Positions 39,446 through 61,627 of a DNA stretch of 64,000 nucleotides are shown one piece after another. Numbering within the stretch: the first letter of the stretch is position 1; each line of letters opens with the position of its first letter. A program made the translations under genes and the position numbers. Under the pieces are notes generated by a model. That model worked only from the letters and a program-made list of their open reading frames with translations. It did no database searches and was not told the origin of the DNA. The DNA comes from Akkermansia sp. (GTDB lineage: Bacteria > Verrucomicrobiota > Verrucomicrobiia > Verrucomicrobiales > Akkermansiaceae), in NCBI GenBank assembly GCA_045641125.1, contig JAZUGI010000024.1:1487-65486 (forward strand), in the 5' to 3' direction.

Positions 39446-39451
39446 AAAATT

Positions 39452-41159: not shown

Positions 41160-41219
41160 AATATGACTGACGCAGTTTAGGTGACAGTTCAATTTCCCTT
41201 TTCAAACACAAATAGAAAA

Positions 41220-42296: not shown

Positions 42297-42372
42297 TTTC
42301 CTTTTTCAATTTTAACGTAGAGGGGCAACTCCTCAAAAATCAAAGTTCAATTACACAAACAATTTTTTCATT

Positions 42373-43293: not shown

Positions 43294-43302
43294 TTTTGAT
43301 GA

Positions 43303-43332
43303 GCGGTGGGAGTCAGGCTTGACTCCCACCGC
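43303..43332 (+). other. perfect 13-bp stem-loop after the capsid gene
   Basis: GCGGTGGGAGTCA-ggct-TGACTCCCACCGC with no T-run. It may be a transcript-stabilising or attenuating hairpin. Confidence 0.5.
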
Positions 43333-43371
43333 ATAAGGCAAGTTCAATCTTTCTTAAACTAAAAAATCTTT

Positions 43372-43821: not shown

Positions 43822-43851
43822 TCACTTTCTTCGCATCATCAGAAATTATCA

Positions 43852-43877
43852 GGGAGCCTTACTTGGCTCCCTTTTTT
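43852..43877 (+). terminator. rho-independent terminator
   Basis: GGGAGCC-ttactt-GGCTCCC followed by TTTTTT. Confidence 0.6.
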
Positions 43878-44440: not shown

Positions 44441-44503
44441 TCTGTTCTTTAATTAGTGCAATAATAATCGAGTTCTACTTCCTTTTTTTATCCAAGGGTA
44501 GAA

Positions 44504-44839
44504 ATGAATGAACTTCAAAAATTCATGGCATAGGCGGTTGCGGATTAGGTACGCACAGCGGGCGAGGACGTGGTTATAACGCGCCCGAAGGAGCAATGCG
44601 TCTAGATATACTGCAAGGCGGTCATAACGAGCCGTGATGGCTCATTTCAGGCTGCTATCGGTGGGGCAGAATACTCGGTCACGGGTCACGCCCTGATACA
44701 ACACACTTCGCTGAACGGTGGCTATCCCAAAGCAGGAGACAATCTGCAACAGGCAAGCGGTGAGCGGTGGATAATCACCAACACCATCATGTCGAACAAT
44801 GACGCCGCTATATCTTGTGACCTCGTAAGGATGGCATAA
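44504..44839 (+). CDS. putative head-tail adaptor/closure protein, 3 in-frame TAGs
   Basis: 111 codons, invisible in the track because the fragments are under 60 aa. TAGs are at 44531, 44546 and 44603. The C-terminal ..GERWIITNTIMSNND..ISCDLV resembles head-tail joining proteins. Confidence 0.45.
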
Positions 44840-44841
44840 TC

Positions 44842-45729
44842 ATGGAGAATGTAACACTACCAGGAGGAAAGCTGCTACAGGTGTACTCATGCGTCAAGGT
44901 GCATGAGAAGCAGATTGCCGACACTATCCGCGGCATAGTGTAGAACGGCTTGAAGCACGTCATGCAGACCGTGACGAACAAGATTGTGTCACGCACTCTG
45001 CCGAACACTCCCCAAAATACTGGCAGCGTATCGAAGAAGAACGTGACCGCGCTACGCAAGCGCATTCGCAAGAACTTCCTCAACGATGGAGATTTTTTGC
45101 AGACCTATCCCAACCACTACGGCAAACCGATCTTCGATGATGACGTTGCAAGCGGCTCAACCGCTCTTCCCGTGGTGGTTGTCAGACCCTACAGAGGACG
45201 CCCGAAGAAGGGTCGCAAAGTTAATCAGCCTGACAGGATATACGAGCCGCATGCGCTGCTTTCCTACCTTGACCGCTACACAGAGTTCCGCAAGAAGAAA
45301 AAAGCGGTGATGCGATACAAGAAACAGGGCGCGCACTTAGTGTGGACAACGAAGCAAAATCTGCAAGAGGCTTCACGCATTATGGAAGCGCGTGCGGGTA
45401 ACAACATTTTCGGCTGGAACAGTCTTGCTTCACAGGTGGGCAGCGCGGCAATGAGCAAGTCGCTAAACGTGGGCAAAGGACGCTTTGACAGTCCTGGTGG
45501 AAGTGCGCGCATTACCCCTGCAACATTCAGCTCGGTTGACTCCATGCGTATACAGGCGTTGAACACAAACGCACCGCAAGAGACAACAGGCTATCAGCAG
45601 CGCGTGATTGACGTCAATATACCGAAGTGGATGCAAAACGCATTTGCGCGCGACTTGAAGTTTATGACTCCTAGGAAGCTGCTCAAAGGCGTTAAACTAC
45701 CGCCTGATATTACAGTCACTTGGGATTGA
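44842..45729 (+). CDS. hypothetical neck/tail protein, 1 in-frame TAG
   Basis: ATG at 44842 and TAG at 44941 joining to the track ORF 44950-45729. The middle is basic. Confidence 0.55.
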
Positions 45730-45755
45730 ATTTCCTTTTTCAAATCATTTATAGC

Positions 45756-46175
45756 ATGGAGAGTATACAGTCATTCACCGCAAAACTTGCAGCCGCGTTT
45801 TCATAGCAACAACCAAACAACGCCGCGCTCACTTGGGACTTTCGCGGTGAAGTTGCAGACATGGTGGAGTACGAGAACACACTCATCGGCATTGTCAGTT
45901 TTAGCACGTCCACCGAAGAACTGTATGGCAACCGCACGCAAAGACTGGAGGGTAGCTTAACAGGTCAAATCAGAATAGAGCAGATGACAAACGCGCAGAT
46001 ATTGTCATGCCTGAACTAGCTACAGACCATCCTTTACGACTATATCGGTGGACTTCGCTACACAGAGATTGGTGACGCCGTAGTGTTGCAGGGTACTTGC
46101 GACTCCATACTCACGCAGTAGAACGGCACTTATTTTCAGTTCGTTCTTCCCATCAATCTCGTTGTTCAATTTTAA
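45756..46175 (+). CDS. hypothetical virion protein, 3 in-frame TAGs
   Basis: 139 codons, not in the track. TAGs are at 45804, 46017 and 46119. No TAA or TGA in frame. TAA stop at 46173. Confidence 0.5.
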
Positions 46176-46189
46176 CGTCAATTTTCAAC

Positions 46190-47707
46190 ATGAATACAAA
46201 GGTACAGAACTTTTCACTCGTAGAGGGAAGCCGAAGCAGAATTGTCATCAAGCTGCCTGACGGTGCTGACCCCTATAGCTACACAGTCACGGCGGGCAAC
46301 GACAGGTGTCAACAGCGTCATTTGCAGTACGAGGTTGACTCCATATCAGACCACACAATCACCATGCTATCTGAACCCGCGCCAAGTTGCATGACGATAC
46401 CCTACCAGTTGTTCATCACCGACAACAACTCACACGTCGAGTGGTTCGTAATTAGTGGGTACGTCACAGTCATCAGGCGTCTTGTAGGCGGTGCAAACAC
46501 GGAGTCGCAGGAGATTGAGCCACCCTTGTCTGAACAGGTGCTAGAGTTAAACGTCACGTTGGAGTATAGCAAGGCTGATTTGGATGAAGCGGTGGCACTA
46601 GCACTAGGAGCCGCAAGCAATGCACAGCAGTCAGCCGTTGACGCTGGAAGCTCTGCGGGATTGGCGTGGGATTATGCACAATGCGCCCATCGTGCCGTGA
46701 GTGATATAGGGTCAAGTGTAGAGTCTGCTTGGAGTGCAGCGGGTAAATCACAAGAATGGAGCGAGCTTGCAAGACAGTACAAGGAACAATCTTGTTGTTA
46801 CAAGAAACTAGCGTTTAATTACGCGAGCTCGTCGGAAATGTTCGCGACTACGACAACATTTAATGCAAACAGAGCGGAGAAGGCAGAGCAATTATCATGC
46901 CAAGGTGCGACAGTATCTAAAAACTTCGCCCTTTGTGCGAGAAAGTGGTCAATGTGTGCAGCAGCGTACAAGAATGGAGCCCAATTATCAGCCAGCAGCG
47001 CAGAAACGTATAAAAATCAGGCTTTGAGCTACATGAACCAGTCATGCTCATACGCATCAACCGCAAGTCAAGCAGCCAATCAAGCATCTCAATACTCCTC
47101 AGCCGCTTGTGCCGCACGGGATGAAGCATGCTCATATGCAACCAGCGCATGCAACGCTGCAACGGAAGCGCAATAGAAATCATCACAGGCTGGTTCATAC
47201 GCAGATTGTTCGGCAACGTGGGCTCACAGCGCGTGCCATCACTCACAGCAAGCTCAATCATATGCGTTTTGTGCGTGCAGTTACGCCGCATCAGCACAAT
47301 CCGCCGCTGCATCAGCACAATGCGCCGCTGACGCTGCGAGACAATACGTGAGTCAGTTTATCCAAGGTCCAACTTGGAGAGACGTGCAACCATGCACAGT
47401 CATCACCATGCGAAATAACGAGGTCGGTATAATTGTTGCTCCTTGTGACGCCTAGCATGCCGCTCATTATCCAATACAGTTAAATCCCAACACCACGACC
47501 GAGCTTTACTTGGATTATGGAGCTGATTTTGAAGGTCAAGAGGTCAGTTTCCCTGCATGTTGGAAGTGGATTAACGACTCACTCCCCGAAAACTTTGAAG
47601 CGGGTAACATTTATCGCATAGCCGTGCGTGATGACAGTCCATTTGACTCATGTGGACTACACACACCTCGAATCATAGCCAATGTGGCTTACGAATATCA
47701 AAAGTAA
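46190..47707 (+). CDS. tail-fibre-like protein with Ala/Ser/Cys-rich repeat region, 2 in-frame TAGs
   Basis: It has long A-x-x-S-A/Q-type repeats like phage fibre shafts. TAGs at 47174 and 47453 join it to the track ORF 47510-47707. Confidence 0.55.
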
Positions 47708-47720
47708 CTTTTAAACGAAC

Positions 47721-48266
47721 ATGAAAAAGATTTACGCTAAAATTATAGACGGACGTCTTCAATACATGGGGCGTGTTCCTAACGTGGTGAACGCCACCGA
47801 AGAGACGCGCGAACATTACGCACGCGAAAACGGCTTCAAAGAGTATCTACACACTACACAGCCGAGCCGCTTTTACGTCCAGAGCTACACAGAGAGCGAC
47901 ACGCTCATCACGGATGAGTGGACGCCCTGTGACCTAGAACAAGCAAAGCAGAGCGCATTGGAAGAAGTGTAGAACAATCTCACCCACGAGCTAAGAGAAA
48001 GAAGAAGCATTGAATGTGATGGCTTCGCCAATCTCATCATCTACGACCAGGACGCATTGACTAACGCTACAGGCTTGACCGCTGGCGACATGTTCATTGA
48101 CGCTGCGGATGAAGTTCACCAGCTCACCGCTGATGACGTATCGCGCATTCAAGCGGCTTTGAAAAACTACCGCCTGACGCTCTATGCAGCCGCTACAACG
48201 CGCCGCGCTTCCATTTCCGCTGCAACTACCGTGGACGAGGTGGAACGCGCCTTAAACGGCAACTGA
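47721..48266 (+). CDS. DUF4376-like fibre-associated/assembly protein, 1 in-frame TAG
   Basis: TAG at 47970 joins 47721-47972 with 48057-48266. The C-terminal pattern (..IIYDQDALTNATGL..FIDAADEVHQLTADDVSRIQAAL) is DUF4376-like. Confidence 0.45.
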
Positions 48267-48290
48267 CGCCCCTACACAGGCAAGGTTCAG

Positions 48291-48316
48291 GCACACTCTG
48301 GCGAGTGTGCTTTTTC
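48291..48316 (+). terminator. rho-independent terminator
   Basis: GCACACTC-tggc-GAGTGTGC followed by TTTTT. Confidence 0.6.
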
Positions 48317-48345
48317 CTTTTTCGTTCCCATGGTAAGGTCAATTT

Positions 48346-48843
48346 ATGAATTTGCAGATACCGTAGGACACGAGAAGAATAATCCTCGTCAGCAACGTAG
48401 AACAGCCGCCCGCCTTTACTTTCAAGGATGGTGATTTGGTAGTGGAGATGAACAAGGCGGTACACCACGACAAGCTCATTGCCGTTTTGGGTGCGGCTCC
48501 AATAAAAAAGTTTTTATTCATCAGGCACAACAAAAAGGGGCATTTTTTCCCCTAGAACTTCACGGAAAAGTCCAGCACTTGGGACAACATTGTGATGAGC
48601 AGCGAACTCTACGGCTTCGCGTCAGAACGCTGGTTCGCAGACTACAGCCGCGCAACAGATGGCAAGACTCCCACCACGGGATATGGACTCTACAAGATTT
48701 TCAGATCACGCCGCCCGAACATGCCTATCATTGGGCTGGGATTTAACCCTGACGACCACACCACGCCGCATTCACCTATGCACGCATGGGAGTACGAGTG
48801 GGAGCAGTACAGGCACGACAAACATTTTCAACTACACGCATGA
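48346..48843 (+). CDS. hypothetical protein, 2 in-frame TAGs
   Basis: ATG at 48346, with TAGs at 48364 and 48553 joining to the track ORF 48592-48843. This is preferred over the two minus-strand track ORFs here. Confidence 0.5.
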
Positions 48844-49604
48844 ACAAGGAAGATTTTACACAGATAGGAACAAGCATTGAGTCGGTCGATTTGGCGGCAT
48901 TGTTGATTGCATTGGAATTTCCCCTCCTCTCCTGCAACACGGTAGAAGGCGTGAACCTCGATGGTGGAGCGACACCGCGCAAGACCATCACGTGGAAGTT
49001 CGGCAAGGTAAGTGAGAACGGCAAACACAGACTGGATGAAGTACGGCGCAAGTGGATATTGCCAAAAGAATTCACCTTGGACGATTACCAGTTGTCACGC
49101 CTTCTTGCCTAGAACTTGGGTATATTGAAGAACTTGTCCAAGCACCCTGCTTCCATCTTGTGGAACGACTTTGACGGTATCGGTCAGCTATCGAGCAGGG
49201 AGTGTTCCAAGAAGTGCAAAGAGCTACCAATATCGGCAAGGGGCTTCGGCGGCATTTGTGACACGTCTACAATCGCCCTAGCAATCACGCTTGGAGTCAT
49301 CCCTAGTGCCATGTATATGGACAATGGAAGATTGCATGTGAGCTTCACACGCACGGCAAACAGCGTAAACTTGGACGATGTGATACGCATGCTGAAAGAC
49401 CCCAACATGAGAAGGCGCGACAACACGAACGCGGTTGCAACTCTCATTTGCCAGTTGGACAACCGTGCAGAGATTTTAGCAAACATTGACGCCATGCGGA
49501 AAAAAATTCGCCTCATCGGTGATGGTGGAGAAACACAGGTCATGTTCGAGCAGGGCAAACTCAAAGAGAAAGACAAGGCAAAAATCAAAGACCTGTTCAG
49601 CTAA
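48840..49604 (+). CDS. hypothetical protein, 1 in-frame TAG
   Basis: The start has ATGA overlap with the upstream stop. TAG at 49110 joins 48840-49112 with 49116-49604. Confidence 0.55.
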
Positions 49605-49638
49605 GCATTTTCCTTTTTGAACGTATTGTAGAACAACC

Positions 49639-51678
49639 ATGAGCAAAGGCACAATCCAAGTTGACGTACAGGCAAACACGCAAAAGGCGACACAGTAGGT
49701 GAAGAAGCTGCAAAGCGACTTGCAGTCAAGCTCATCTTCGGGCAAGTTCGATTTTGGTGGACTGGATGGGATATAGAGCAAGTTCGCAGAGATTAAGAAC
49801 GGACTGACCAGCATAGGTGAGACGTCCTCAATCAAAACAGTAGCACAGGGGTTGAAAGGTCTTGGCAAGGGTGCAGTCGGTGCGGGTGCTGCGATAGGCG
49901 GTCTAGCGGTGGTTGTGAAGACCGTGGACGCGCAGATTGACCGCATGATTCAGACTGGCATGGAAGCAGAAAAACAGTTCCAGCGCACAAACGTCACGCT
50001 CACCAATCTTGACCGCAATCTTGGCGGCGCGGGCAGGAGCTTCGATGGCTTCACAAAAGAGCTGCAACTCATGGCGGCGAACGGTGTCAATTCCGTGGAC
50101 GAGCTTAATTCAGCAGCGCAGTAGTTGATGACCGCATTCGATGGCAACTCTACAAAGGCGCGCAAACTTCTATCCACCTTCGATGACCTTGCGGCTGGCA
50201 CGGGTGTTCAGGTGAGCGATTGGGCAAGCATGGCGTCAGAGGTGAGCCTGACAGGTGTTTCCATTAAGGACTTGACGCGCCTTTCAAATAAGGGCATACC
50301 CATCTATCAGGCACTCGGTGACGCCATGAACGTCACAGCAGAGCAAGCCGAGAGCGTGGCAAAGGCTGGACAGGTGGGGATGGAGGATTGGTTCGACGCT
50401 ATCGAGAAATTGAGCCAACGATACAAGGGATTATCCCAGCAGCTAAGCTCCTAGACGCTGGAAGGGGCGCAAAGCACGTTCGAGCAGTCTAAGGGGTTGA
50501 AGTACCAGGGAGCCGCCGAAGGGTACGCGGAAGAGCGTGTGAGAGGCTTAAACGAGATGAGCGACAAAATGCAAGAGTTCGCTCAAAATCCCGTGTGGCA
50601 AGAGACAATCTCCGTCCTTGGCGGTGTTAAGGCTGCATTTGAGAATGACGTTATTGACCCCCTGAAACAACTGCCCGCAAAGCTGGGTGATGGACTGGCA
50701 ATCACACTCGTTGGCATGGTGTCAGATCTGAAAGGAGCAGTCGAGGCGGGAGTACAGGCTAAGCAGTCTCAGAAACTGGCAGACGTGACACGCGCCGCCG
50801 CCGAGGGTATAGCTGGCAAGCTCACAGCAGGGCAGATGGAGGACGTCCTTGCTCAAATGAAGAGCGGCAAAATCAACCACGATAGCCTTCCACAAGAGCA
50901 TTGGGATAGGATGATTGCCTAGCTGGAGAACGCCCTCAAGCAGCGCAAAGAACAAGACGCACAGGACAAGGAGAAAGAGGATGCCAAAATAAAGGCCGAG
51001 AACATGCGGCAAGCGTAGCTCAAATATGGAACGCTGTAGGACAAATTAAAGGCGGTGAGCGGGCGTGATGGTGCAATGTAGATACGGATAGACTCACCGA
51101 AACAGATACAGGCGGCTATTGACAGGCTGAAATAGGACTTGCTCGATGGGAAGATTGTTGACGTCAAGGCTGGTGAGGACACCCTAAAAACGCTGGAGAG
51201 TTTGCAACGAGAATACGAGCAGCAAACACAGGCAGCGGCAAGGGCAGAGGAAGAACTAGCACGCAAGCGCAAAGAGTCAGCGGACGCCGCATTGCAAGCA
51301 AAGACTGCCGAGACGAAGCAGTATATCGAGGGCAAGGCAAGTATCGGCAAGCAAATTACAGACGCACAGAAAGACTACGACACCGTGACCGCAAAGCTGG
51401 AGCGCATGCAACAGGCAAAGCAAGTCATCCAAGACGAAGAAGCGCACGGCATTTTCCGCAAGAAGTGGGGCAACCTAAACGTGAGCGACGTCTCCACAAA
51501 GGAAGCAGAGTTGCTGAACGAGTAGAAGCAAGCAGCGTAGAAGCTGGCAGAGCTTAAACAGAGCTATGACACCTACGACCAGCGGTGGAATCAGGCGCGC
51601 ACGCAAATTCAAAACTTCTTCACGTCTGTAGTCGCCGGCAACATTGTTCCGGTCAAGGGCGTTCCCGTCACAGGTTAA
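49639..51678 (+). CDS. tail tape-measure protein, 11 in-frame TAGs
   Basis: 680 codons in one frame spanning the track ORFs 49852-50124, 50125-50454, 50497-50922 and 51139-51525. The TMP core is recognisable (GVNSVDELNSAAQ*LMTAF...LAAGTGVQVSDWASMASEVSLTGVSIKDLTRLSNKGIPIYQALGDAMNV) and the C-terminus is coiled-coil. TAGs are at 49696, 49774, 50122, 50452, 50920, 51016, 51037, 51079, 51133, 51523 and 51538. Confidence 0.75.
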
Positions 51679-51698
51679 AAAACAATTTTAGGTCAATT

Positions 51699-52106
51699 AT
51701 GAATCGCAGTATTATCGAAAATGAAATGTGTCTCCCACACGGCGAGACGGAAACGCAAATGCGTCCAATAACCATCGGCACGCTTGCAATCTTGGAGAGA
51801 CTAGGCAACCCGCTTGTCGGCACGCTCATTGGTGTAGGCAACGCGCAGTTCACAGACTCGGTGGAGAACTTGCTTGAACTGTTTTACATTCACAGCGTGG
51901 ATGACTCGCAGCTCTACAGCATTGTTGACGCACTCTACACCGACCCTGACAGCGTAAAGAAGGACGCCGTATTGTGGGGCAAAGACATGAGCGTTGACGA
52001 GATTGCAGACAACTTGAACAAGCTGCTTCATCAGCAAGGACTAATTCAAGGCTCGATGGTGGAGACGGTGAAGAACAAGGCGCGCAAGTCACCAAAAAAA
52101 GTTTGA
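51699..52106 (+). CDS. hypothetical protein (TAG-free)
   Basis: 135 aa from ATG 51699 within track ORF 51585-52106. Confidence 0.5.
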   Translation: MNRSIIENEMCLPHGETETQMRPITIGTLAILERLGNPLVGTLIGVGNAQFTDSVENLLELFYIHSVDDSQLYSIVDALYTDPDSVKKDAVLWGKDMSVDEIADNLNKLLHQQGLIQGSMVETVKNKARKSPKKV

Positions 52107-52303
52107 GTCAGTCGTTCTTAGTGTGGCTCATGTCACTAATCGCGTGCGAGACAGGATGGCACTTGGACTATATCCGCTCGTTGCCGTTCTATCAGGTCTT
52201 GCAAGTTCTAGCTTTCAAGCTGCAATGGGAGGGCAATGAGCTTCGCTGGAAGAAGCGCGCATGTGACAACGAGCGGCTGAACAAGTTTATTGAGTCACTT
52301 TAA
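52103..52303 (+). CDS. hypothetical small protein
   Basis: A 66-aa ORF with an uncertain start (TTG 52103, GTG 52121 or ATG 52130). Confidence 0.35.
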   Translation: MSQSFLVWLMSLIACETGWHLDYIRSLPFYQVLQVLAFKLQWEGNELRWKKRACDNERLNKFIESL

Positions 52304-52329
52304 TTTTCCTTTTCAACTTAAAGATAGAA

Positions 52330-52674
52330 ATGTCACAGAAACAGATAAAGACGTGGGGAAAGATTGGCGGCTTTGAGTCGTTGGCCAAATCTTGGAGTGA
52401 CCCGCCTACTGGATGGGCGTTTTGGCCGCTTTATCTCAAATGCGCCGACTATGCAGAAACGATTATCCACGGTGATGATTGCAGCGTCATGCATGACGCC
52501 TCATGCTTTAATGCAGACTTAGGAACGGAAGGTCACGGCGAACGCATTACTTTCTACGACTTCACGTTCTAGACAGGGCAACCGCAAGCAACGATGACCG
52601 TTCGGCGTGGCACGGCAAAGAAGAAGCCCGAAGAAACGTGTTGCCGATACCTAGATTGGAGGATTTTTAAATGA
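52330..52674 (+). CDS. hypothetical protein, 1 in-frame TAG
   Basis: Read-through of TAG 52570 adds 33 aa. The ORF then ends at a TGA that overlaps the next ATG (ATGA at 52671-52674). Confidence 0.55.
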
Positions 52675-53708
52675 GTACGATAATTGACCCCCTTGGCGAG
52701 ATAGGTGCAGATTATTTGAAGCCTATAAAGAAGTTCGGCAAGCTGCAATCTGACAGCGGAAGCGGTGTTGTCGGGCATTGGCAGAAACCGAGCGCGTCCT
52801 ACTTGGAAGAAAAAGGATGGGAACTTGGCGGTGACGCCGTGACCTACAACTACAAAGGCGGCGAAAGTGTGGTGAACGACATTCTCTCACGCTTCCCAGC
52901 CGAGCCCACACAGGCGGGCGGAAACGGCGTGCAAGTCACCTTGTCGCAGGATGGTGAACCGCTGGGGAATATCAGCGTCACGGTTTTGCAGGTGAAGATG
53001 AAGCCGCGCGGTGAGACACCGAAAGAAGAAGCAGACTTCGGCTCTGATGGTGAGGGCAACACCGACTATGATTTGTGGAGCATGAAGAAAGACAAGCAGC
53101 TCACCAATGACAAGTGGAAAATCGAGTGGGAGGACACGAAAAACTGGTTGCCCTTCTCGTACTACGGCAAACAACTCATCGACCCTTGGACAATATCTGC
53201 ATACAAGCTCCTTGTCGATGGTGACCACTTCCTTGGAGACGTCATCACCATGTCTGACGGTACTGGAGAAAAGACGCAAGAGCTACGAAAGTTTGAGCAG
53301 ACTAGCACTCACAGCGATATTCAAGGATGGGATATATCTCACATCAACCCCATCAGCAGAAACTCCTTGGCATACAACAGGCTTATGCAAGAAAGAGTCC
53401 TAGTCCTCACGCACAGTTGGAGTGAGTAGTGGGTAGTATCGGCAAAGAAGTTTGAGAAAATGCAAGACGAAGAGGACGAGCTGACTGGTACTCAAATGCA
53501 GAAATATGGGAACGAGATTGCAAAGGGAACAATCGTCATTTCAACGACTGGCAGGGGCAATGCAGATGGACCAGTCAAAGACGGAGAGCGCACGAGCAAG
53601 ACGTACACCATCACGCGCACCTTTACTCACAAAGAAGAATTCACATCACCGTCACAACTGCCAGTAGGACTGAAACTCAAAGTCCCTGACAAAGAGCCTA
53701 ATCCATAA
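52671..53708 (+). CDS. hypothetical tail protein, 1 in-frame TAG
   Basis: TAG at 53427 joins 52671-53429 with 53460-53708 in frame. Confidence 0.55.
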
Positions 53709-53737
53709 TTTCCCTTTCAACTCCTTTAGTAAGAAAA

Positions 53738-54748
53738 ATGTATACTTGGACACCTAACGAAACAATCACGGCTGCGAAGTTGAACGCCATGCAAAATCGT
53801 CCAAATATGGAGGACGTGGGCAAAGGTGGTATCAGCTTCGGTGGCATAGAGTCAAGCGCATTGTCACCGAGCGAAATCTGTGTTGCTACGTCTCCGATTT
53901 TCAATGGACCTGTCAAGCTTAGCATTACTGAACACGAAGTAGGCAATCTGAAGTTTGAGTACGACTAGGGAAGTGAGGCGTGGAAAGTGCGTTCAGGTCA
54001 TTCAGGTGTCACAGGACGTGGCACGTTCGGTGCCGAGGGTTACAGGTGGCTATGCACGTCTCAATTTCCAACGGATGGCAAAAAATACGTTTGGGATAGA
54101 ATAGACGTTGACTCATACGGTACGCCGACACGCATACGCACTTGTATCACCACACAGGGTGTCATGCCGACTTGTTTGTGGTAGCCGTACTGCGGAAAAT
54201 CCGGCGTGATTTGGCGTAGGCTGGCAACCGTTGAAGTGGACAATCAGCTTGCATGCGGTTCTTCATGTCCGCCCGCTTGGGCTTATAAAATCACCAACGA
54301 AAACAACGCTTTCGCACTACCTATCGCACGAAGCTGGGGATGGCACAATACCGACACCATACGCATTGACGAAGGCTTATTGAGTGACAGGGGCAGTTCA
54401 TCACATTGGTCACGCACCGTGGCAGGTGACTAGGGATTGTCAACGATGGTGCAAAATATCGGAGAGTTAGGCGGCACGTTCGTCTACGACACTTTCCAAT
54501 GCTCGTATGGTGATTGCAACCGCGTTGGAATAGGCATTGCCAGCGGTGTTGAGTTCTACGATGAAGAAACGTACCGCGCATGCTACAACCGCACCGAAAC
54601 ACGTCCTAAAGCTCGTACTGCAAAGGTGGATATAGGATGTGGAAAGTACCTGTTCATTCAGCCAATCAACCAGCTCCACCCGTGGCAATTCCTCGTTTAT
54701 GCCTCTTGTCACGCGCAGTCAGCATTCATCAATGGACCATCCCGCTGA
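53738..54748 (+). CDS. Cys/Trp-rich hypothetical tail or receptor-binding protein, 3 in-frame TAGs
   Basis: Four track ORFs (53738, 53987, 54206, 54437) share one frame and are joined by TAGs at 53966, 54182 and 54431. Confidence 0.6.
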
Positions 54749-54775
54749 CGGTGATTTTGGGATAAATAGCAGGGT

Positions 54776-55489
54776 ATGAAAAAACTTTTTTAGATATGGG
54801 AGGGCAGTATACCCGACAACGTGCAGAAAGAGATTGACGACCTACGAGACAAGGCAACGGCGGCGGGATATGAGTACCACCTGTACGACCTGTCAATGCT
54901 GCTGGCAGAGATACAGGACGAGAACTTGAAAGAGTCCTTGCGCCGCGCTAAGCGGTATCTCCCCAAATCAATGTTCGGCAGCATGCTTAGTGACTTCTTC
55001 CGCTATTGGTGCTTACAGGATGGTGGAGTCTATATGGACACAGACGTTCTCATCACCACCGACACGTTCCCCGCATTGCCTGACGCTGATGGTGTGTTCA
55101 CTTGCTCGGAGCAGACCGCAAGAAACAACCTGAACACATGCGTCACGGTCTGCAACGGTGACAAGGGGCGCATATACGCGCGATTTTTCACAGAGCTGGC
55201 AACAGACAGACTCAAAAAGACGTGGCTGGACTCTTTCGAGCAATGCAGGGCGAACGCTGGATGGCTTATTGAGCACAAGTGGTCGTTGATTTCGTACCTA
55301 GGTCCTGCGTTCGTGCGGCATTATCTGCCACACTTGTTCGGCGCAACTGGAGTGACCGTCCAGCGCATGCCCTACGAGCTATGCAGCTCACACGACCCGC
55401 GCTCTGCAATTTTCCATGCGGGTGACGGAACGTGGGTGAACGGCGGCAAGGGAAACCCCACGGCACAGCGCAAAATCTCGACTTTATGA
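54776..55489 (+). CDS. DXD-motif glycosyltransferase (Gly_transf_sug-like), 1 in-frame TAG
   Basis: MKKLF*IWEGS...GYEYHLYD...LSDFFRYWCLQDGGVYMDTDVLI. TAG at 54791 lies where the adjacent paralogue has Gln (VHQIWIGG). Confidence 0.75.
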
Positions 55490-56100
55490 AGCACCCTACA
55501 ACAGTTCATCAGATTTGGATCGGAGGCTCGGAAATGCCGCCCTTGGAAAAAACGTGCGTGGATAGCCTTAAAACGGCTTGCGAGCGTTTGGGGGTAGGGT
55601 ATACCCTTTGGAGCGAACAAACGCTTAGGAGGGCATATCCAGACGAAGGATTGTGGCTTCTCGCAGACAAGTTAGCCCCCACCGTGCGGAGAAGCGTGCT
55701 TTTGAGCGACTATTTCCGCATGATTGTGCTTAATCCTGGTGAGTGCTACCTAGATACCGATATGCTCTGCCACCACACACCCGCCATCAATTTCAAAGGC
55801 TCGTCATTGCTCTGTATGGGTGAATTCTGGGACAGGCACAAAGAGGGAACAGGCTTCATCGGCGTGCAAGACAAGTTCACAAAGTTGGACGCTTTGAAAC
55901 AGGCATGGCGTGAGCAGACGCAAAACTTGGACGAGTCGTGCGTTGACAATTTGCTTGCAGCCTATGGACCGGAGTTTTTGAGAAGCACGTTGCAGCGGCT
56001 TGGGATAAAGTCGAACATTCTACACCGCGACCAAATCACGCACGTTCAATGGAAGAACAAGGGCGCACTCATTCACATGGGAGCTGGTTCGTGGGTGTGA
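55486..56100 (+). CDS. DXD-motif glycosyltransferase paralogue (TAG-free)
   Basis: MKHPTTVHQIWIGG...GYTLWSE...LLSDYFRMIVLNPGECYLDTDMLC, with ATGA overlap with the upstream gene. Confidence 0.7.
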   Translation: MKHPTTVHQIWIGGSEMPPLEKTCVDSLKTACERLGVGYTLWSEQTLRRAYPDEGLWLLADKLAPTVRRSVLLSDYFRMIVLNPGECYLDTDMLCHHTPAINFKGSSLLCMGEFWDRHKEGTGFIGVQDKFTKLDALKQAWREQTQNLDESCVDNLLAAYGPEFLRSTLQRLGIKSNILHRDQITHVQWKNKGALIHMGAGSWV

Positions 56101-56128
56101 TTATTTTTCCCTTTTTGTCCATGGGTAT

Positions 56129-56326
56129 ATGACAAAGAAGAACAACTAGGAAATTTTGAAGAAGTACGAGAACGAGCGCAACGAGTGTCTGATTTTCACA
56201 AGGGTCATGGGATATTACAGACCTGTGACGAGCTTCAATATCGGTAAAGCGCAAGAGTTCAAGGAGCGCGTGTGGTTCAACACGCAAAAGTTCAAAGACG
56301 CGCATGCCGATAAAAACGCACGATGA
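56129..56326 (+). CDS. stand-alone NrdD C-terminal glycyl-radical-domain mini-protein, 1 in-frame TAG
   Basis: 65 codons. TRVMGYYRPVTSFNIGKAQEFKERVWF matches the class III RNR C-terminal signature RVCGYLg....FN.GK..E.K.RV. TAG is at 56147. An alternative TTG start lies at 56156. Confidence 0.6.
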
Positions 56327-56349
56327 CGATTTTGGATAAATATCTGTGT

Positions 56350-56442
56350 ATGGAAACATTTGCATTTTTGACAATCGCTGGACTCATCATCAGTAACATT
56401 ATCACAACCGCGCTGCTCTACAACACAACGAAGAAACACTAA
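56350..56442 (+). CDS. 30-aa single-TM peptide
   Basis: METFAFLTIAGLIISNIITTALLYNTTKKH, preceded by the GGATAAATA motif at fixed spacing. Confidence 0.35.
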   Translation: METFAFLTIAGLIISNIITTALLYNTTKKH

Positions 56443-56446
56443 GGAC

Positions 56447-56764
56447 ATGACAAGGGAAAAATTGAAACAGGCGTGCGACAGCATGCGAGAGACTTTGCAA
56501 AACTGCTCACTTGAAGTGACAGAGTAGGAGATTGACGAGGTTCTGACCTATGCAGCGGAGCACAATGCGCGCAGGATTGGTGAAACGTACACGACAAGCT
56601 ATCCACCCTTGCTCACAGAGCTGCAAAACAGGTTAAGGAAGTTGGACGAGAGCGACTGCCCACCGCAAGTTGAAGAAGGTCTGCTCACTCATATCACGCT
56701 TGACACGTTAGAAGGTTATTTGCCGCTGGAGAATATCATCGGGTTTAGCTACAAAAGACCGTGA
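56447..56764 (+). CDS. hypothetical protein, 1 in-frame TAG
   Basis: 105 codons, with TAG at 56525 and a TGA stop. Confidence 0.45.
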
Positions 56765-56766
56765 GC

Positions 56767-57051
56767 ATGGACGAGTTTGAAACAGAGTGGGAAGAAATGG
56801 ACGCAAAGATACTCGCGTCTGACTTGTTCGATGAGGCAGAGAAACAAGCCCTGATTGAGTACCTAGACAAGCTCAACGTGAACACCTATGCAGACCTGAA
56901 AAAACTTGCCCCAACGTGCAAGGGCAAATTGTGGACAGATGAGCAGCGAGATTTTTTCACGTTGTTCTTCTCTAACTCTGAACTCGGTATCAGAAAGAAA
57001 TACGAGAGGAAAAGCAAGACCACAAACGAAGAAAAAAAAGAGGAGTCCTGA
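56767..57051 (+). CDS. hypothetical acidic protein (TAG-free)
   Basis: A 94-aa ORF, the last gene of the rightward block. Confidence 0.45.
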   Translation: MDEFETEWEEMDAKILASDLFDEAEKQALIEYLDKLNVNTYADLKKLAPTCKGKLWTDEQRDFFTLFFSNSELGIRKKYERKSKTTNEEKKEES

Positions 57052-57060
57052 TGGACTCCT
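57041..57060. terminator. bidirectional terminator hairpin between convergent blocks
   Basis: AGGAGTCC-tgat-GGACTCCT with an A-run upstream, which is a T-run on the minus strand. Confidence 0.55.
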
Positions 57061-57083
57061 CCCTGCGTTTCTATATGGTGGCA

Positions 57084-57512
57084 CTAGTAGTCAGACGGTC
57101 GCATGATGGTGGTATGCTCACGCTTGCCCTCATCGTTCTCTGCGTCTGTAATAATCCACACGCGCTCACCGCCTATCTCCCACTCTGACAGAATACGCTC
57201 ACCGCTTTTAAGGGCGCGGAAGTTTGCCCACCAGTCAGACCCCTTTGTCAATCCCCAGTTGCAAAAGCGGTGTTCCTCAAGGGCGTGTGCAATGTCGTAG
57301 CGGTATTCTTCCATGCGCTCTGCCAGCTCTGCCGTGATAACCACCTGTCCCAGCGGGAAATCAACGTAGGTGAAATGCAAGCCATGCGTGGGCTCACGGT
57401 GGAAGAACTTGGCAATCTCACGGCGCAGATTAGGCATTTTCTCATCGTCTATGGGGAAGAGCCTAGACTTGCCATCCCCATAGGGATTTTTCAGTAGTAG
57501 CACGGTCATCAT
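57084..57512 (-). CDS. hypothetical early protein (TAG-free, terminates at TAG)
   Basis: 142 aa from MMTVLLLKNPYG. Stop codon is TAG at 57084-57086. Confidence 0.5.
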   Translation of the reverse strand: MMTVLLLKNPYGDGKSRLFPIDDEKMPNLRREIAKFFHREPTHGLHFTYVDFPLGQVVITAELAERMEEYRYDIAHALEEHRFCNWGLTKGSDWWANFRALKSGERILSEWEIGGERVWIITDAENDEGKREHTTIMRPSDY

Positions 57513-57516
57513 GGCT

Positions 57517-57792
57517 TTACTTGGCAAAGAGCGTTTTGACGTACTTGATGGACTCACGCCCGACCAGCATAGCAAGCGGTGAAGTGCGGTGTATACGCGC
57601 ACGGCGCAAGACGTTCTTGATGAACTGCTCGTTCTCTGCAACGAGCTTGAACCTATCTTCCGCAGGTGCTTTGAACAGCTCCGCGAGTGAGATTGTGTCT
57701 TGTATGGCAGCGTCAGTCACGCGCTCTACAATCTGTGACAGCGTGGCGACTTCAACCGTGTTGTTCTTTGTGTTGTTCTTCTTAGTTCTCAT
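57517..57792 (-). CDS. hypothetical early protein
   Basis: 91 aa from MRTKKNNTK, with a TAA stop. Confidence 0.45.
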   Translation of the reverse strand: MRTKKNNTKNNTVEVATLSQIVERVTDAAIQDTISLAELFKAPAEDRFKLVAENEQFIKNVLRRARIHRTSPLAMLVGRESIKYVKTLFAK

Positions 57793-57808
57793 ATTTGGGA
57801 TTTCCTTT

Positions 57809-57958
57809 CTATTTTTGTTTCTTTTTGCAGGGCGCGAGTGCAAGTTGTTTGTACTCTGTGAACGCCCTGATGAATGAGCCTAGTTGCAGGTGATATGCAT
57901 CTTTCCAAGTAATACCAGCTTCGCCACATGTTTTAGAGTGCGTCCACCCGTTGACCAT
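57809..57958 (-). CDS. small HTH-like protein (Cro/excisionase-like guess)
   Basis: 49 aa: MVNGWTHSKTCGEAGITWKDAYHLQLGSF.. It stops at TAG. An upstream ATG at 58006 would require reading a TAG. Confidence 0.3.
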   Translation of the reverse strand: MVNGWTHSKTCGEAGITWKDAYHLQLGSFIRAFTEYKQLALAPCKKKQK

Positions 57959-58042
57959 GCTGTTCTTCCAAAGTGCAAGCTATCTTCTGTACCCTTGCTC
58001 ACCCATCAGGGCGCGCACGCATTAACGCACGCGCTCACCCGT

Positions 58043-58285
58043 TCAACCACGTGGGAACTCCAACTCATACTGTCTACCACTTGGCTCACGCTGTACAAGA
58101 ATGAGCTTGTCTGGCAGTATGGTCATGTCAACCACTTCATCTGGATAAATGTCAATGCAGCAATATGCACCACCACCAGCATCAAGTGTGACGTATGGCA
58201 ATCCGTCCATAGTCTCGCTGTAGTCAATGCCACACACGTCGAACAGGTCTTTAATGAATTTGATAATTTCTTGTTCCTCTTGCAT
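58043..58285 (-). CDS. hypothetical early protein
   Basis: 80 aa from MQEEQEIIKF. It is the first gene of the leftward early operon. Confidence 0.45.
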   Translation of the reverse strand: MQEEQEIIKFIKDLFDVCGIDYSETMDGLPYVTLDAGGGAYCCIDIYPDEVVDMTILPDKLILVQREPSGRQYELEFPRG

Positions 58286-58508
58286 AGTCTTTTCTGTTTT
58301 GTTGTTGAAGCAGGGCAACACGTCTTTCGCCCTATGATGATACTTTACCTGGAATTATTCCAGTATGCAAGTCTTTTTTTCGTCGAAAGTCACTTTTTTT
58401 CAAGGAGTAACGACTGCCGAGACTGGGAAGCCGCATGGAATCGGCGTTTTATTTTTTATACGAAAAATAGGAAATTTCCAAATTTTGCTATTTCGGAGCA
58501 TTTTTTGC

Positions 58509-58537
58509 TTTACAAATTGGGTCGGGTGTGGTACAAT
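58509..58537 (+). promoter_or_regulatory. sigma70-type promoter for the 58547 gene
   Basis: TTTACA, a 17-nt spacer, then TACAAT preceded by TGg (extended -10). It lies 10 nt upstream of ATG 58547. Confidence 0.55.
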
Positions 58538-58546
58538 ATCGACCTT

Positions 58547-59074
58547 ATGAACGAAATCGAACACGACGCCGCGAGCGTCACTGAAAACGGGGTTGACCTG
58601 AACGCAGGGCAGCCGGAAGCAAAGCAAGTAACTAACAAGAAAAATAATTGGTACGCCGAATGGATAGACGATGAGTCCTGTAGGGATATCGACTGTATCT
58701 ACAACGCAATTAGGTACATTGAGGAAATTAACGAGATGGCCGCGCGAGGTGTTGATACAGAGGATGAAGAAATACGGGATGCGTTATATATGGCGATTAT
58801 GGATTACACCAAAGGAGCAAAAGACTGGAATCACGAAATATTGAAGGAAAAGTTGGGACTTGGGTTTATGAGTGTACACACTGACGGAGATTGGAAGTTC
58901 CAAGTCAGTGAGGTCAACCCAAAATACATAAGGTACGTCTACGACAAATTATGTGAGCAAGGACGTGCAAAGAATGCGCCTAGTGTATATACTAGAGAAG
59001 AGAACAGTGAGAGTTACACAGATGACGATGGCTATATCATTATCAAATACGAAGTAATAAAGTCGCTCAAATGA
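58547..59074 (+). CDS. hypothetical protein next to the integrase (TAG-free)
   Basis: 175 aa from MNEIEHDAAS within track ORF 57884-59074. The upstream part of that ORF is a shadow. Confidence 0.5.
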   Translation: MNEIEHDAASVTENGVDLNAGQPEAKQVTNKKNNWYAEWIDDESCRDIDCIYNAIRYIEEINEMAARGVDTEDEEIRDALYMAIMDYTKGAKDWNHEILKEKLGLGFMSVHTDGDWKFQVSEVNPKYIRYVYDKLCEQGRAKNAPSVYTREENSESYTDDDGYIIIKYEVIKSLK

Positions 59075-59103
59075 ATCATGGGGGCAAGGCAAAGCACAAT
59101 CAA

Positions 59104-59138
59104 GGGGAGCAGCCGCAAGGTGAACTCCCCTTTTTTTT
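59104..59138 (+). terminator. rho-independent terminator
   Basis: GGGGAG...CTCCCC stem followed by TTTTTTTT. Confidence 0.5.
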
Positions 59139-59155
59139 GCACCTGTGCGGCGCGT

Positions 59156-60760
59156 CTACTCTATCAAATCTTGCTTGCCTGTGAGCTGCTTTGCATTGCC
59201 ATCTTCCCCAGCCGCCGACACGTTTTCCAGCACCTGTGAGAAGAAGTCGGACATGATTGTGTTCACCCTTTGCTTGTCTTTCATCACTTCCTGTGCAAGC
59301 CGCAACGCCTCATCATTTGCGCCCGTGTCAACGGTGCTGCTCACGTCACTCTTAAAGCTGTCCACCGAACTATATCCCATGCTCTCCAAGGTCTTTTTAA
59401 TCACCAGCTCCCTGGCTATCCTCTCGGCTTCTCGCTGTGTCTTGCTCTGCGTCTCTTTGTTCAGCCGTGCAAGGTAGTCTCGCCGCTGATTTTCTTCGTG
59501 TAGATACCGCGCGCCGATATACTGCTCCATATACTCAAGCATGCCCGCCGTGGACTTTTGGGGGTCAAGGTCAAACTTTAGGTAGTGCCGCTCCTCTACG
59601 GTGCGCGGCGAGTGTCCAACGAGATAATTAATCATCGACTCGTTAAAGCCACCTTGCGTGAGAACTGTGATGGCGGTGGCTCGGAGAGAGTGTGGGCTAT
59701 ACGCAAAGAAGCGGCGATTGAACTTTGTGTCGATAGCCGCAAACAATCCCAAGTGCTTTATGCAAGACAGGAGGAAATTTCGCACATTCTGCATAGCCGA
59801 CTTGTTCAGGTTTTGAGGCTTCACTCCACAGCGGCGCAAAGGGAACAGGAGCGGTGAGTCTCCATCTTTTGGCTGGCATAGAGTCTTCACTTCTGTCAGC
59901 AGCTCATGCATTTTGTCCGTGATATAAAGGCGCGCGTGTATCTGCTTCTTAGCAGTCTTTTTGAAAATCTTGGTGATTACCCGCCGCTCCATATCCACTT
60001 CTTCCCAGCGCAAGCCTACCACGTCTCCGATTCGCCACCCTGTAACCATCATCAGGTAAACGATGGCATAACGCTGGAAAATGCGTTCGGGTGTCATTGT
60101 GTACCCGCGCCCGTTGACGTCTTTCTTGTCCTTAGCCTTGGCAAGAATGAACTGGAGATCTGACTGGGAGAAGATACTGCGGCGATTGCCATGCTGCTCC
60201 TCTCGCAGCTCCTTAAATCTAACGCCGCTGAACGGATTGTAGTATTTCAGCGCAGAGCCTCTGAACTCCTTTAGCGCGCCGCGCAGTACCACGTCCACGC
60301 GGTTGAGAATGTCGCAGAACGTGTTGTACGAGTACGGCTCCAATGACGCTGCAAAATCTTCCACAAGCTTGTCGTCTAGCTCGTGCAGCTTCATCCCCTT
60401 GCGGTGTTCTTTCAGGTAGTCAACAAAGAGCTGGAAGCGGCGTGTCTCCTGCTTTATAACGTCCTCATTCTTGCTGATACAGATGGCAGATTGAGGCAAC
60501 GACTCTAGGTATCGCACGGCGTCCTTGGCTTCGTTGATTGCACCATGCAACACTTCAATCTCATCGGTGGCAAGCTCGATTTTGGCGTACTCTTTTTTCA
60601 GCTCCTTTATCCGCGCCGCTTGCTCTCGTTTGGTGGGCTTCGGTGTCTCACTCTTCACTTGCTTGCGACCGTAGGGGTACTTCATGCCCTGCTTCACCTT
60701 GGAGTAGTCCTTGTAGATGATGACGTAGGCATTCTTTTCGGCATTGTAGGTGATTTTCAT
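59156..60760 (-). CDS. int: tyrosine recombinase / phage integrase (TAG-free, terminates at TAG)
   Basis: 534 aa from MKITYNAEKNAY. The catalytic-domain motifs are TGWRIGDVVGLRWEEV (Arg I), HSLRATAIT (H-x-x-R) and LVGHSPRTVEERHY (His...Tyr). The upstream 221 aa of the 755-aa track ORF cross attR and are not real. Confidence 0.9.
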   Translation of the reverse strand: MKITYNAEKNAYVIIYKDYSKVKQGMKYPYGRKQVKSETPKPTKREQAARIKELKKEYAKIELATDEIEVLHGAINEAKDAVRYLESLPQSAICISKNEDVIKQETRRFQLFVDYLKEHRKGMKLHELDDKLVEDFAASLEPYSYNTFCDILNRVDVVLRGALKEFRGSALKYYNPFSGVRFKELREEQHGNRRSIFSQSDLQFILAKAKDKKDVNGRGYTMTPERIFQRYAIVYLMMVTGWRIGDVVGLRWEEVDMERRVITKIFKKTAKKQIHARLYITDKMHELLTEVKTLCQPKDGDSPLLFPLRRCGVKPQNLNKSAMQNVRNFLLSCIKHLGLFAAIDTKFNRRFFAYSPHSLRATAITVLTQGGFNESMINYLVGHSPRTVEERHYLKFDLDPQKSTAGMLEYMEQYIGARYLHEENQRRDYLARLNKETQSKTQREAERIARELVIKKTLESMGYSSVDSFKSDVSSTVDTGANDEALRLAQEVMKDKQRVNTIMSDFFSQVLENVSAAGEDGNAKQLTGKQDLIE

Positions 60761-60951
60761 GGCTGGTTGTTTTGGGGGTTGTGACCAGCGTAGCACGGCA
60801 CTCGGCGGCGTGCAAGCCTTCGTTGCAAAAAAGTTGCAATTTTTTGTCGGGAAATGGGTCATTTTTTGCAATTTTGGCTCATACGCCCTCCTGCTCATAT
60901 CTCCACAACACATAGAAAAACAAGGCATTACGAGGCTATAAAAAACAAATG

Positions 60952-60970
60952 CACTAATGCGGTGGGCTTC
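60952..60970. repeat. attR (imperfect direct repeat, core GCGGTGGG)
   Basis: CACTAATGCGGTGGGCTTC. Composition returns to GC-rich immediately to the right. Confidence 0.7.
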
Positions 60971-61627
60971 GACGAGTACGACTCCAAGAAGCTCGCCAAC
61001 ATTGATGTGCCGGTGAGCAAGACCATTGAGGGCCTGCGCGCCGCCGCCGGGCGCACCATGGACTCCGTGATGATTTCCGAGTTCCTGGGAACCGCACACA
61101 CCGGGGAGACAGGTGCCACCACCGTCACCTTCCCGGATGAGCAGACCATTGAGGAGGACTACGTGGAGAGCGGCACCCCGGCGGACAGCAACCTGACGCT
61201 CGGCAAGCTGCGCAAGGCGCTCAACATGCTCATGAAGGCGGAAGCCTGGAACGAGGAGCGCCGCGCCTACGGCGATGAGCTGGTGCTCGCCTGCACCAGC
61301 AGCCAGATCAACGCCCTGCTGCAGCAGCCGGAAGTCTCCAGCTACGAGTACAACACCGTGCGTGCCCTGGCAGAGGGCAAGCTGGATTCCTTTATGGGAT
61401 TCCGCATCATCCGCACGGAGCAACTCCCGATTGACGACGATGACATCCGCTCCTGCCTTGCCTGGGTCAAGAGCCGCGCAGCCTTCGGCATTTGGGATGA
61501 TTTCAAGGTGCGTATCTCCGTGAGAGACGACCTGGACGAAACCCTGCAGGTGCGCGCCAAGTTCGCATGCGGCGCCACGCGTCTGCAGGAGGCCGGCTTT
61601 GTGAAGATTCTCTGCGCAGAGTCCTGA
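60959..61627 (+). pseudogene. 3' fragment (about 220 codons) of the host ORF split by the prophage
   Basis: From the core (A V G F D E Y D S K K L...) the frame is the same as in the 5' fragment. It is GC-rich and ends ...GFVKILCAES. Confidence 0.7.

Follow-up and report, generated by a model that had tools for sequence, protein, structure and literature searches.

The question raised by this locus is how a TAG codon is read when it lies in frame near the 5' end of a conserved gene. The window analysed here, 64,000 nucleotides of contig JAZUGI010000024.1 from the Akkermansia sp. assembly GCA_045641125.1, holds two adjacent glycosyltransferase genes, denoted below as genes 1 and 2, the first of which carries a TAG at its sixth codon (position 54791). 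An earlier note on this DNA had proposed that this TAG encodes glutamine, from the single alignment column that the two encoded N-termini provide, and had called this evidence suggestive only. The comparisons described below, of this column across the protein family and of all in-frame TAG codons of the surrounding low-GC (guanine plus cytosine) island, indicate that TAG 54791 is one of 60 glutamine codons in a complete 31.2-kb temperate phage that is integrated in a standard-code Akkermansia chromosome. Very probably, TAG is a Gln sense codon in the lytic-cycle genes of this prophage and a terminator in its lysogeny module. The coordinates of all features are collected in Table 1.

The glutamine column of the glycosyltransferase family

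Gene 1 opens with an ATG at 54776 followed by AAA AAA CTT TTT TAG ATA TGG GAG GGC AGT, which reads M-K-K-L-F-TAG-I-W-E-G-S, and its TGA stop (55487-55489) overlaps the ATG of gene 2 at 55486 in an ATGA arrangement. Gene 2 starts with MKHPTTVHQIWIGG (M-K-H-P-T-T-V-H-Q-I-W-I-G-G) and ends at 56100. The DXD motif is present in both (YMDTDV / YLDTDM), its residues D88 and D90 being invariant in the orthologue alignment, and BLASTP with TAG as X identifies the two genes as true paralogues, with 25% identity over essentially the full length and a pairwise E = 9e-9. Since this alignment begins at the IW that directly follows the TAG, the latter falls opposite Gln9 of gene 2, and the N-terminal alignment claimed in the earlier note is thus borne out by sequence, frame and BLASTP. 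Gene 1 matches the DXD sugar-binding region PF04488 of Pfam with 27.3 bits, above the cut-off of 23; gene 2 scores 15.9 bits and is below that cut-off, but is still a full-length paralogue of gene 1. Searching PHROGs with both genes gave no useful match.

With its TAG entered as X, gene 1 has 15 homologues among the 5.8 billion proteins searched, and the TAG column is occupied by Gln in 13 of the 13 full-length orthologues, which are 53-67% identical, within the context [Y/F]-Q-[F/Y]-[W/F/Y]-x-G. In all the standard-code relative loci that align at this point the codon is CAA or CAG, while the TAG is kept as TAG in the 95% identical relatives L003 and L004. The profile search of 1.84 billion representative proteins extended the family to 63 members, 47 domains of which span the N-terminus: these carry the box [V/I/L]-H-Q-I-W-[I/L/V]-G, in which 46 of the 47 domains have the Gln and 45 the Trp, and this box corresponds to VHQIWIGG in gene 2 and LF-TAG-IWEG in gene 1. 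The earlier note calls the (I/V)HQIW(I/L)G box characteristic of the family, and the distant domains agree. As judged from these alignments, the match to Gln at the TAG column is not due to chance. Four distant members (P0115, P0118, P0127 and P0165) begin exactly after the HQIW box, at profile position 13, and may represent further gene calls that are too short because their genes have an in-frame TAG in place of this Gln or close to it.

The structural context of the box was analysed on an AlphaFold model of the orthologue P0008 (N-terminus MKKLFQFWEGN), which has a predicted local distance difference test score (pLDDT) of 91.4 and a predicted template modelling score (pTM) of 0.89, and in which residues 3-7 form strand beta-1. 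Foldseek with this model retrieved Legionella SetA and LtpM, Yersinia YeGT and Photorhabdus PaToxG (probability 1.0, template modelling scores of 0.4-0.5), and a sequence profile match to SetA was obtained at E = 3e-4; in the sequence search of the PDB the alignments begin beyond residue 30, so that the N-terminal box is not covered. According to the model, the two glycosyltransferases have a predicted GT-A/DXD UDP-sugar transferase fold, for which transfer activity is likewise predicted. With these retaining GT-A enzymes of the PF04488 toxin-effector type they have in common the DXD motif, the GT-A fold and an N-terminal beta-1 with a conserved aromatic residue. The identity to the four effectors is merely 13-18% at the structural scores given above, and unlike them the proteins under study are small (204-237 residues), stand-alone phage proteins encoded as a tandem pair. 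The Trp of the box (cf. Trp102 of the clostridial toxins in this enzyme class) is presumably in contact with the UDP moiety.

Read with the standard code, the TAG would be an ordinary stop, the short frame behind the ATG would be non-coding and glycosyltransferase 1 would begin at the GTG at 54821, where the standard-code list of open reading frames (ORFs) does place its start. The 95% identical database protein P0001 has also been called from the equivalent downstream start, which is as expected if its gene holds the TAG as well. However, the 15 codons 5' of this GTG, with TAG taken as Gln, reproduce the N-terminus of the orthologues (MKKLF-Q-FWEGN in P0008) at a column of invariant Gln, and the same segment forms beta-1 and holds the conserved Trp of the family, so that a start at the GTG would result in a protein without either. 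Also, 59 further TAGs show the same pattern in conserved genes that have the lengths of their standard-code homologues, and we consider an ordinary stop at this position to be highly improbable.

The tandem pair is kept in every relative that covers this region and is flanked by the tail-fibre region and the integrase-side module. Both enzymes are more likely to serve lytic-cycle functions than to be lysogenic-conversion genes, because translation with the host code would leave gene 1 unfinished, and gene 2, although TAG-free, overlaps the stop of gene 1.

Residues aligned with the in-frame TAG codons

Twelve related loci (L001-L012) were retrieved via homologues of the glycosyltransferases and of the large terminase (TerL). 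L003 and L004 (95% glycosyltransferase identity) are recoded and share the insertion site and the fragmented standard-code gene calls, and L010 is an independent recoded relative with 23 in-frame TAGs in the aligned regions, at other positions. The standard-code relatives make up six lineages (L005-7, L008, L001, L002+L011, L009 and L012) and hold long intact genes. Recoded and standard-code members occur within one family, with protein identities down to 54% and up to 86% (TerL). No close relatives were detected in IMG/VR by TerL peptide patterns or by the glycosyltransferase profile.

Alignment of all island proteins (TAG as X) to the standard-code loci by tblastn placed 58 of the 60 TAG sites opposite at least one lineage, yielding 186 cells. 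The identity of the encoded residue was evaluated by likelihood, the probability of a relative's residue given the residue of the window being estimated on the roughly 27,000 ordinary cells of the same alignments; as cells from related lineages are not independent, each site was given one vote and sites were bootstrapped. This is the tabulation that the earlier note had suggested as a check, and Gln is the commonest residue opposite TAG (47 of 186 cells), followed by Glu (32), Lys and Ser (14 each), and Asn and Thr (12 each), with no Tyr, Cys or Val. The Gln share of 25% compares with 34% at real Gln codons and with at most 5.3% at any other residue; similarly, at least one lineage has Gln at 45% of the TAG sites, as against 55% for true Gln codons and at most 12% for any other residue. 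With one vote per site the log-likelihoods are -148.6 for Gln, -171.8 for Glu and -184.0 for Lys, so that Gln is favoured over Glu by 23 log units; it is also favoured over the background model by 76 log units, and is the best residue in 2000 of 2000 site bootstraps. In agreement, the spectrum of the TAG columns gives a chi-square of 26 against the CAA/CAG profile and of 207-460 against those of Glu, Lys, Ser and Thr. A reading as pyrrolysine or Lys was discarded, the Lys model being 35 log units worse than that of Gln in this per-site comparison. The code-15-like assignment of TAG to Gln, deduced earlier from one column, is thus supported well beyond that column.

Individual sites follow the same trend. 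TAG occurs at conserved Gln positions in the glycosyltransferase box, at portal residue 129 (3 of 3 lineages), at residue 629 of the tape measure protein and at site 253 of the gene at 52671. At TAG-155 of TerL, 15 of 55 homologues have Gln, among them the closest ones examined, and many others have Asp; the TAGs at sites 23 and 404 of TerL fall on polar positions that vary. The reciprocal comparison is also informative: the window codons opposite the TAGs of L010 are CAG (four times), CAA (once) and GCG (once), and one TAG in the L010 amidase is opposite a Gln of L009.

A complete prophage in a standard-code host

The GC content of the window is around 63% at 1-29.7 kb and 61-64 kb and around 49% in between. 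This low-GC island tiles into genes once TAG is read as sense, with 60 in-frame TAGs in 28 of 35 genes; the ORF at 32511-33056 (three TAGs), which has no homologue and may be non-coding, was left out of these counts. Reading through TAG restores proteins of the lengths observed among homologues, as TerL comes to 577 residues (homologues up to 577), the portal protein to 499 (482-497) and the tape measure protein to 679, compared to 672-709 in the intact PF20155 genes of standard-code relatives. The flanks consist of housekeeping genes including GuaB, TypA, GltX and QueA, and the QueA and TypA sequences are found unchanged in 90% clusters that carry the label Akkermansia sp. None of the 28 flank genes has an internal TAG, and they end in TGA (14), TAA (11) or TAG (3); the host thus follows the standard code and seldom stops at TAG, since TAG is absent from the interior of these genes and ends just three of them.

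The two copies of the crossover core GCGGTGGG, at 29745-29752 and 60959-60966, delimit a prophage of 31,214 bp that lies entirely within the window. Its insertion has split a host gene of the Phage_capsid_2 family: the fragments on either side, when joined, yield a protein of 303 residues that matches PF19821 throughout (1-293/293, E = 4e-73). At the empty site L014 an intact 303-residue copy is found (L014:1589-2500) in the gene order PEGA-lipoprotein, capsid gene, DUF3089, YkuD and FolD, and intact copies of 301-304 residues are widespread in Akkermansia, amounting to 215 clusters with 74-94% identity on contigs of up to 244 kb. This PF19821 gene is solitary, having no further phage genes around it, and is kept across Akkermansia chromosomes. 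The possibility that the high-GC flanking DNA is a second prophage was ruled out by the housekeeping flanks and by the solitary, conserved nature of the capsid-family gene.

TAG as a terminator in the integrase-side module

A distinct scenario is observed on the integrase side. The gene at 57084-57641 ends in RPSDY-TAG, where its standard-code relatives have LPSDY-TGA and the recoded L003 and L004 have TAA at the aligned codon. The integrase contains 25 CAA/CAG codons and no TAG, which has P = 0.024 at the prophage-wide rate of 13.8%; its terminal TAG is the same in L003 and L004, and beyond it the sequences diverge, with an indel relative to L003. From these comparisons TAG has two meanings in one prophage, as terminator in the integrase-side module and as Gln codon elsewhere.

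Stop usage and codon context also differ from those of ordinary genes. Homologous genes end in TGA or TAA at a ratio of 23:10 in recoded relatives, compared to 18 TGA, 65 TAA and 4 TAG in standard-code relatives, and the window prophage has 17 TGA and 18 TAA. The shift from TAA to TGA, a stop specific to RF2, has a Fisher p of 3e-6, or 8e-4 when matched for GC (L005+L008 vs the window), over just two recoded lineages, and is suggestive only. A purine follows 46 of the 60 sense TAGs (77%), as compared to 222 of 374 CAA/CAG codons (59%, p = 0.01) and to 64% for all codons (p = 0.04). A 3' purine is the context classically tied to efficient amber suppression. Both the purine bias and the stop shift are weak clues that would fit decoding in competition with a release factor.

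The proposed scheme is as follows. In the lysogen the host release factor would stop at TAG, so that the integrase-side genes would be made and nearly all other genes, including glycosyltransferase 1, would be cut short, whereas during lytic growth TAG would be decoded as Gln and full-length proteins would result. This corresponds to the genetic-code gate on lysis and lysogeny put forward by Borges et al.

Observations against the scheme and the decoding of TAG

A number of observations weigh against the reading of TAG as Gln in such a scheme. As the whole prophage is inside the window, the search for tRNA genes is a statement on a complete recoded genome, and none was found in the prophage, in the 64-kb window or in the 12 related loci with ARAGORN at its default and 90% thresholds; at 80% there were 86 calls, obviously spurious. 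In the same loci, Rfam at E <= 1 and a scan for CUA anticodon arms (5-bp stem, 7-nt loop) gave nothing credible, and neither a release factor nor a synthetase nor a tRNA-modifying enzyme was recognised in Pfam and PHROGs scans of about 30 island proteins. The predicted attP junction (CACTAATGCGGTGGGGTTTAGTTAATATGAC) has no exact match in viral and JGI metagenome collections. The Amidase_3 endolysin, which L009-L012 encode between portal and protease, has no tblastn match anywhere in the window prophage, where the interval 40938-41162 holds just a 73-codon ORF, and this prophage may thus have lost its lysis gene. With attP not found and the endolysin missing, this copy of the prophage may not be active at present. 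The early-region genes hold TAG as well (four in a rep-like gene, two in an HNH gene), and this is at odds with a simple scheme whereby the new code is installed by early genes that follow the standard one. Compared to average Gln columns, those with TAG show somewhat greater variability (the chi-square of 26 corresponds to p ~0.007, with cells non-independent) and many TAG sites are at variable positions; also, the identity of the amino acid is inferred from evolution and not from peptides.

Part of these observations, namely the missing free or circular form, the missing endolysin and the lack of a tRNA reading TAG, would also suit a decaying prophage in which the TAGs are inactivating nonsense mutations. 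Nevertheless, the genes are interrupted solely by TAG and never by TAA or TGA, their lengths are those of intact homologues (see TerL and portal protein above), and 25 of 30 well-aligned window TAGs are also TAG in the 95% identical relatives, with coding conservation continuing downstream. In addition, the independent relative L010 has its 23 in-frame TAGs at other positions, the residues opposite TAG are specifically Gln-like and the integrase avoids TAG. In-frame TAA or TGA codons or frameshifts at comparable frequency in the relatives were not seen, nor was a random residue spectrum opposite TAG. Decay is the least probable of the explanations considered here, and we attach hardly any weight to it.

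A further alternative would have TAG translated without Gln as the sole residue: another amino acid (Glu, Lys, Tyr or pyrrolysine) would be inserted, or else a near-cognate mixture with release factor 1 (RF1) disabled, in which Gln would be just the main or the best tolerated product. In E. coli without RF1, near-cognate tRNAs read UAG as Gln and Tyr and also as Asp and Val (PMC6207430), and an impure reading would be in line with the lack of a dedicated suppressor tRNA, with Glu as the second commonest residue opposite TAG, with the lean of TAG sites to variable positions and with the purine bias, as if a release factor were competing. This is contradicted by the likelihoods, which are strongly for Gln over Glu, Lys, Ser and Thr, by the absence of Tyr from the 186 cells and by the occurrence of TAG at the strictly conserved Gln positions listed above, and no pyl genes were seen in the scans of island proteins. 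Reading of TAG as something other than Gln is therefore improbable, if less so than decay or an ordinary stop, and Gln is retained as the preferred assignment.

How Gln would be inserted is a separate matter. Suppressor tRNAs are present in just 35-40% of recoded phages (Borges et al., bioRxiv 10.1101/2021.08.26.457843), and are thus a typical but not obligatory feature, which is absent here. Without a phage tRNA, the decoder would be supplied in trans or be independent of a tRNA of its own. Most likely is a trans-acting suppressor tRNA, which could be encoded by the host or by a co-resident element, with anticodon CUA and charged by glutaminyl-tRNA synthetase. The second option dispenses with a dedicated tRNA and would involve a weakened RF1 and near-cognate reading by tRNA-Gln CUG. 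In one version of this option, which we put forward as a rather unlikely possibility, a TAG-free gene of the prophage would antagonise host RF1 and host tRNA-Gln(CUG) would read UAG through first-position G-U pairing, making up a protein-only code switch that gates lysis and lysogeny. Tentative candidates for such an antagonist are the TAG-free ORFs without an assigned function at 35145-35747, 36354-36665, 51585-52106 and 56761-57051. If true, protein-based RF1 antagonism would have no described precedent among recoded phages.

Relation to known recoded phages

Gut phages that recode TAG to Gln are established, as are recoded prophages of standard-code hosts, and the central claim made here is a confirmation and not a discovery. 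The nearest counterparts are Garnet and Topaz, TAG-recoded prophages of Prevotella and Oscillospiraceae (Borges et al., bioRxiv 10.1101/2021.08.26.457843; Nat Microbiol 2022). As in these, a small temperate phage resides in a standard-code host with a shift in GC and close standard-code relatives, its genes come out heavily fragmented with code 11 and whole with code 15, and its integrase has no in-frame TAG and may end at TAG, the likeness being one of described features. It differs from them in its Akkermansia (Verrucomicrobiota) host, which is not mentioned in Borges et al., in its size (31.2 kb vs ~24 kb), in its insertion within a protein-coding capsid-family gene and not beside a tRNA gene, and in having no tRNA whatever.

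Mass-spectrometric proof of TAG to Gln comes from code-15 crAss-like phages that carry suppressor tRNAs (Peters et al., bioRxiv 10.1101/2022.01.06.475225). These too are gut phages of standard-code hosts that read TAG as Gln, but they are virulent, around 100 kb in size and have their recoding concentrated in late genes; in contrast, the Akkermansia prophage is a 31-kb, tRNA-free temperate element whose TAGs are spread over early, head, tail and accessory genes and are assigned to Gln by sequence comparison. Among deposited phages the best match is Akkermansia phage Moulinsart (ON453896.1; TerL with 37.7% identity, E = 4e-113), an inducible prophage of A. muciniphila YL44 with 31,347 bp (PMC10197239). 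The two have in common the host genus, the genome size, the temperate lifestyle and a head module with GpA-type terminase, portal and Clp-like protease. Moulinsart uses the standard code (no in-frame stops in aligned genes), is alignable only in its head genes and is without the glycosyltransferase pair; with the head genes alone aligning, it was too distant to be added as a standard-code reference.

Within our incomplete coverage of the literature, no report was found that links stop-codon recoding to an Akkermansia phage. New details here are the host genus and the complete recoded genome without a tRNA, and the insertion in a conserved capsid-family gene is notable as well. Akkermansia is a health-relevant gut genus, of a phylum without an earlier link to recoded phages in the literature searched. 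A complete, tRNA-free recoded genome with exact att sites makes it a more pointed question how TAG is read by those recoded phages, 60-65% of the total, that lack suppressor tRNAs, and one and the same genome has TAG both as a terminator on the integrase side, where relatives have TGA or TAA, and as a Gln codon elsewhere. The mixed family of recoded and standard-code members offers a good natural series for the origin of the code change. On the practical side, standard-code annotation of such Akkermansia genomes shreds the prophage and mis-starts genes, as exemplified by P0001.

Features of the prophage and minor observations

Table 1. Features of the prophage and its insertion site, in window coordinates.
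Feature	Position	Strand	Description
Host Phage_capsid_2, N-terminal fragment	29502..29762	+	PF19821 positions 1-79, E = 1.6e-14; ends TKAVGFS*
attL crossover core GCGGTGGG	29745..29752	+	From three-way comparison of attB (L014), attL and attR
TAG-recoded prophage body	29753..60958		31,214 bp core to core, ~49% GC
Large terminase (GpA type)	37404..39137	+	3 in-frame TAG; phrog_15 E = 5e-67; 58 full-length homologues
Portal protein	39452..40951	+	3 in-frame TAG; phrog_21 E = 4e-36
Head maturation (Clp-like) protease	41163..42296	+	2 in-frame TAG; phrog_94 E = 6e-42
Major head protein	42373..43293	+	1 in-frame TAG; phrog_283 E = 2.5e-7
Tape measure protein	49639..51678	+	11 in-frame TAG; homologous to PF20155 TMP_3 genes
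Glycosyltransferase gene 1	54776..55489	+	237 codons; predicted GT-A/DXD, PF04488; TAG at codon 6
In-frame TAG of gene 1	54791..54793	+	Near-invariant Gln position of HQIW box, within beta-1
Glycosyltransferase gene 2	55486..56100	+	204 codons; TAG-free paralogue of gene 1
Integrase-side gene	57084..57641	-	TAG 57084-57086 is a genuine stop
Tyrosine integrase	59156..60760	-	534 residues; no internal TAG, ends at TAG 59156-59158; phrog_1 E = 2e-29
Host Phage_capsid_2, C-terminal fragment	60854..61627	+	phrog_3437 E = 2e-37; homology from ~60953, NAVGFDEYD
attR crossover core GCGGTGGG	60959..60966	+	From three-way comparison of attB (L014), attL and attR

The prophage holds three homing-endonuclease-like genes, each with an in-frame TAG, at 29837-30367 (-), 43859-44440 (-) and 33376-33843 (+); two are of the GIY-YIG/NUMOD3 type and one is HNH_3, and one of the GIY-YIG genes lies antisense within the head module. 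The intergenic interval 33057-33375 (319 bp; see also 52107-52329, +) has structure far above that of shuffled sequences (z ~-4.9 on both strands), in which a long-range stem accompanies several GC-rich hairpins. Possibly it serves as an origin or a regulatory region between divergent gene blocks; as Rfam gives no match and the relatives do not conserve it, a role as a hidden decoding RNA is unsupported.

Downstream of the glycosyltransferase pair, the 65-codon gene at 56129-56326 (+) has a TAG at codon 7 and is conserved in the relatives. Its sole match is to the C-terminal glycyl-radical segment of the anaerobic ribonucleotide reductase NrdD (PF13597 530-561/562, 29.6 bits), and by analogy with E. 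coli GrcA it may encode a 'spare part' radical domain.

The motif TGGATAAATA, allowing at most one mismatch, occurs in 10 copies where 1.4 are expected, all within the prophage, at 30373, 32512, 32659, 33090, 33352, 33428, 44485, 54759, 56333 and 58142. Several of these copies are located 4-44 nt upstream of stand-alone cassettes in the same orientation, namely both GIY-YIG genes, the HNH gene, glycosyltransferase gene 1 and a 31-codon membrane ORF at 56347, and by its sequence the motif looks like an extended -10 or T4-late-like (TATAAATA) promoter element.

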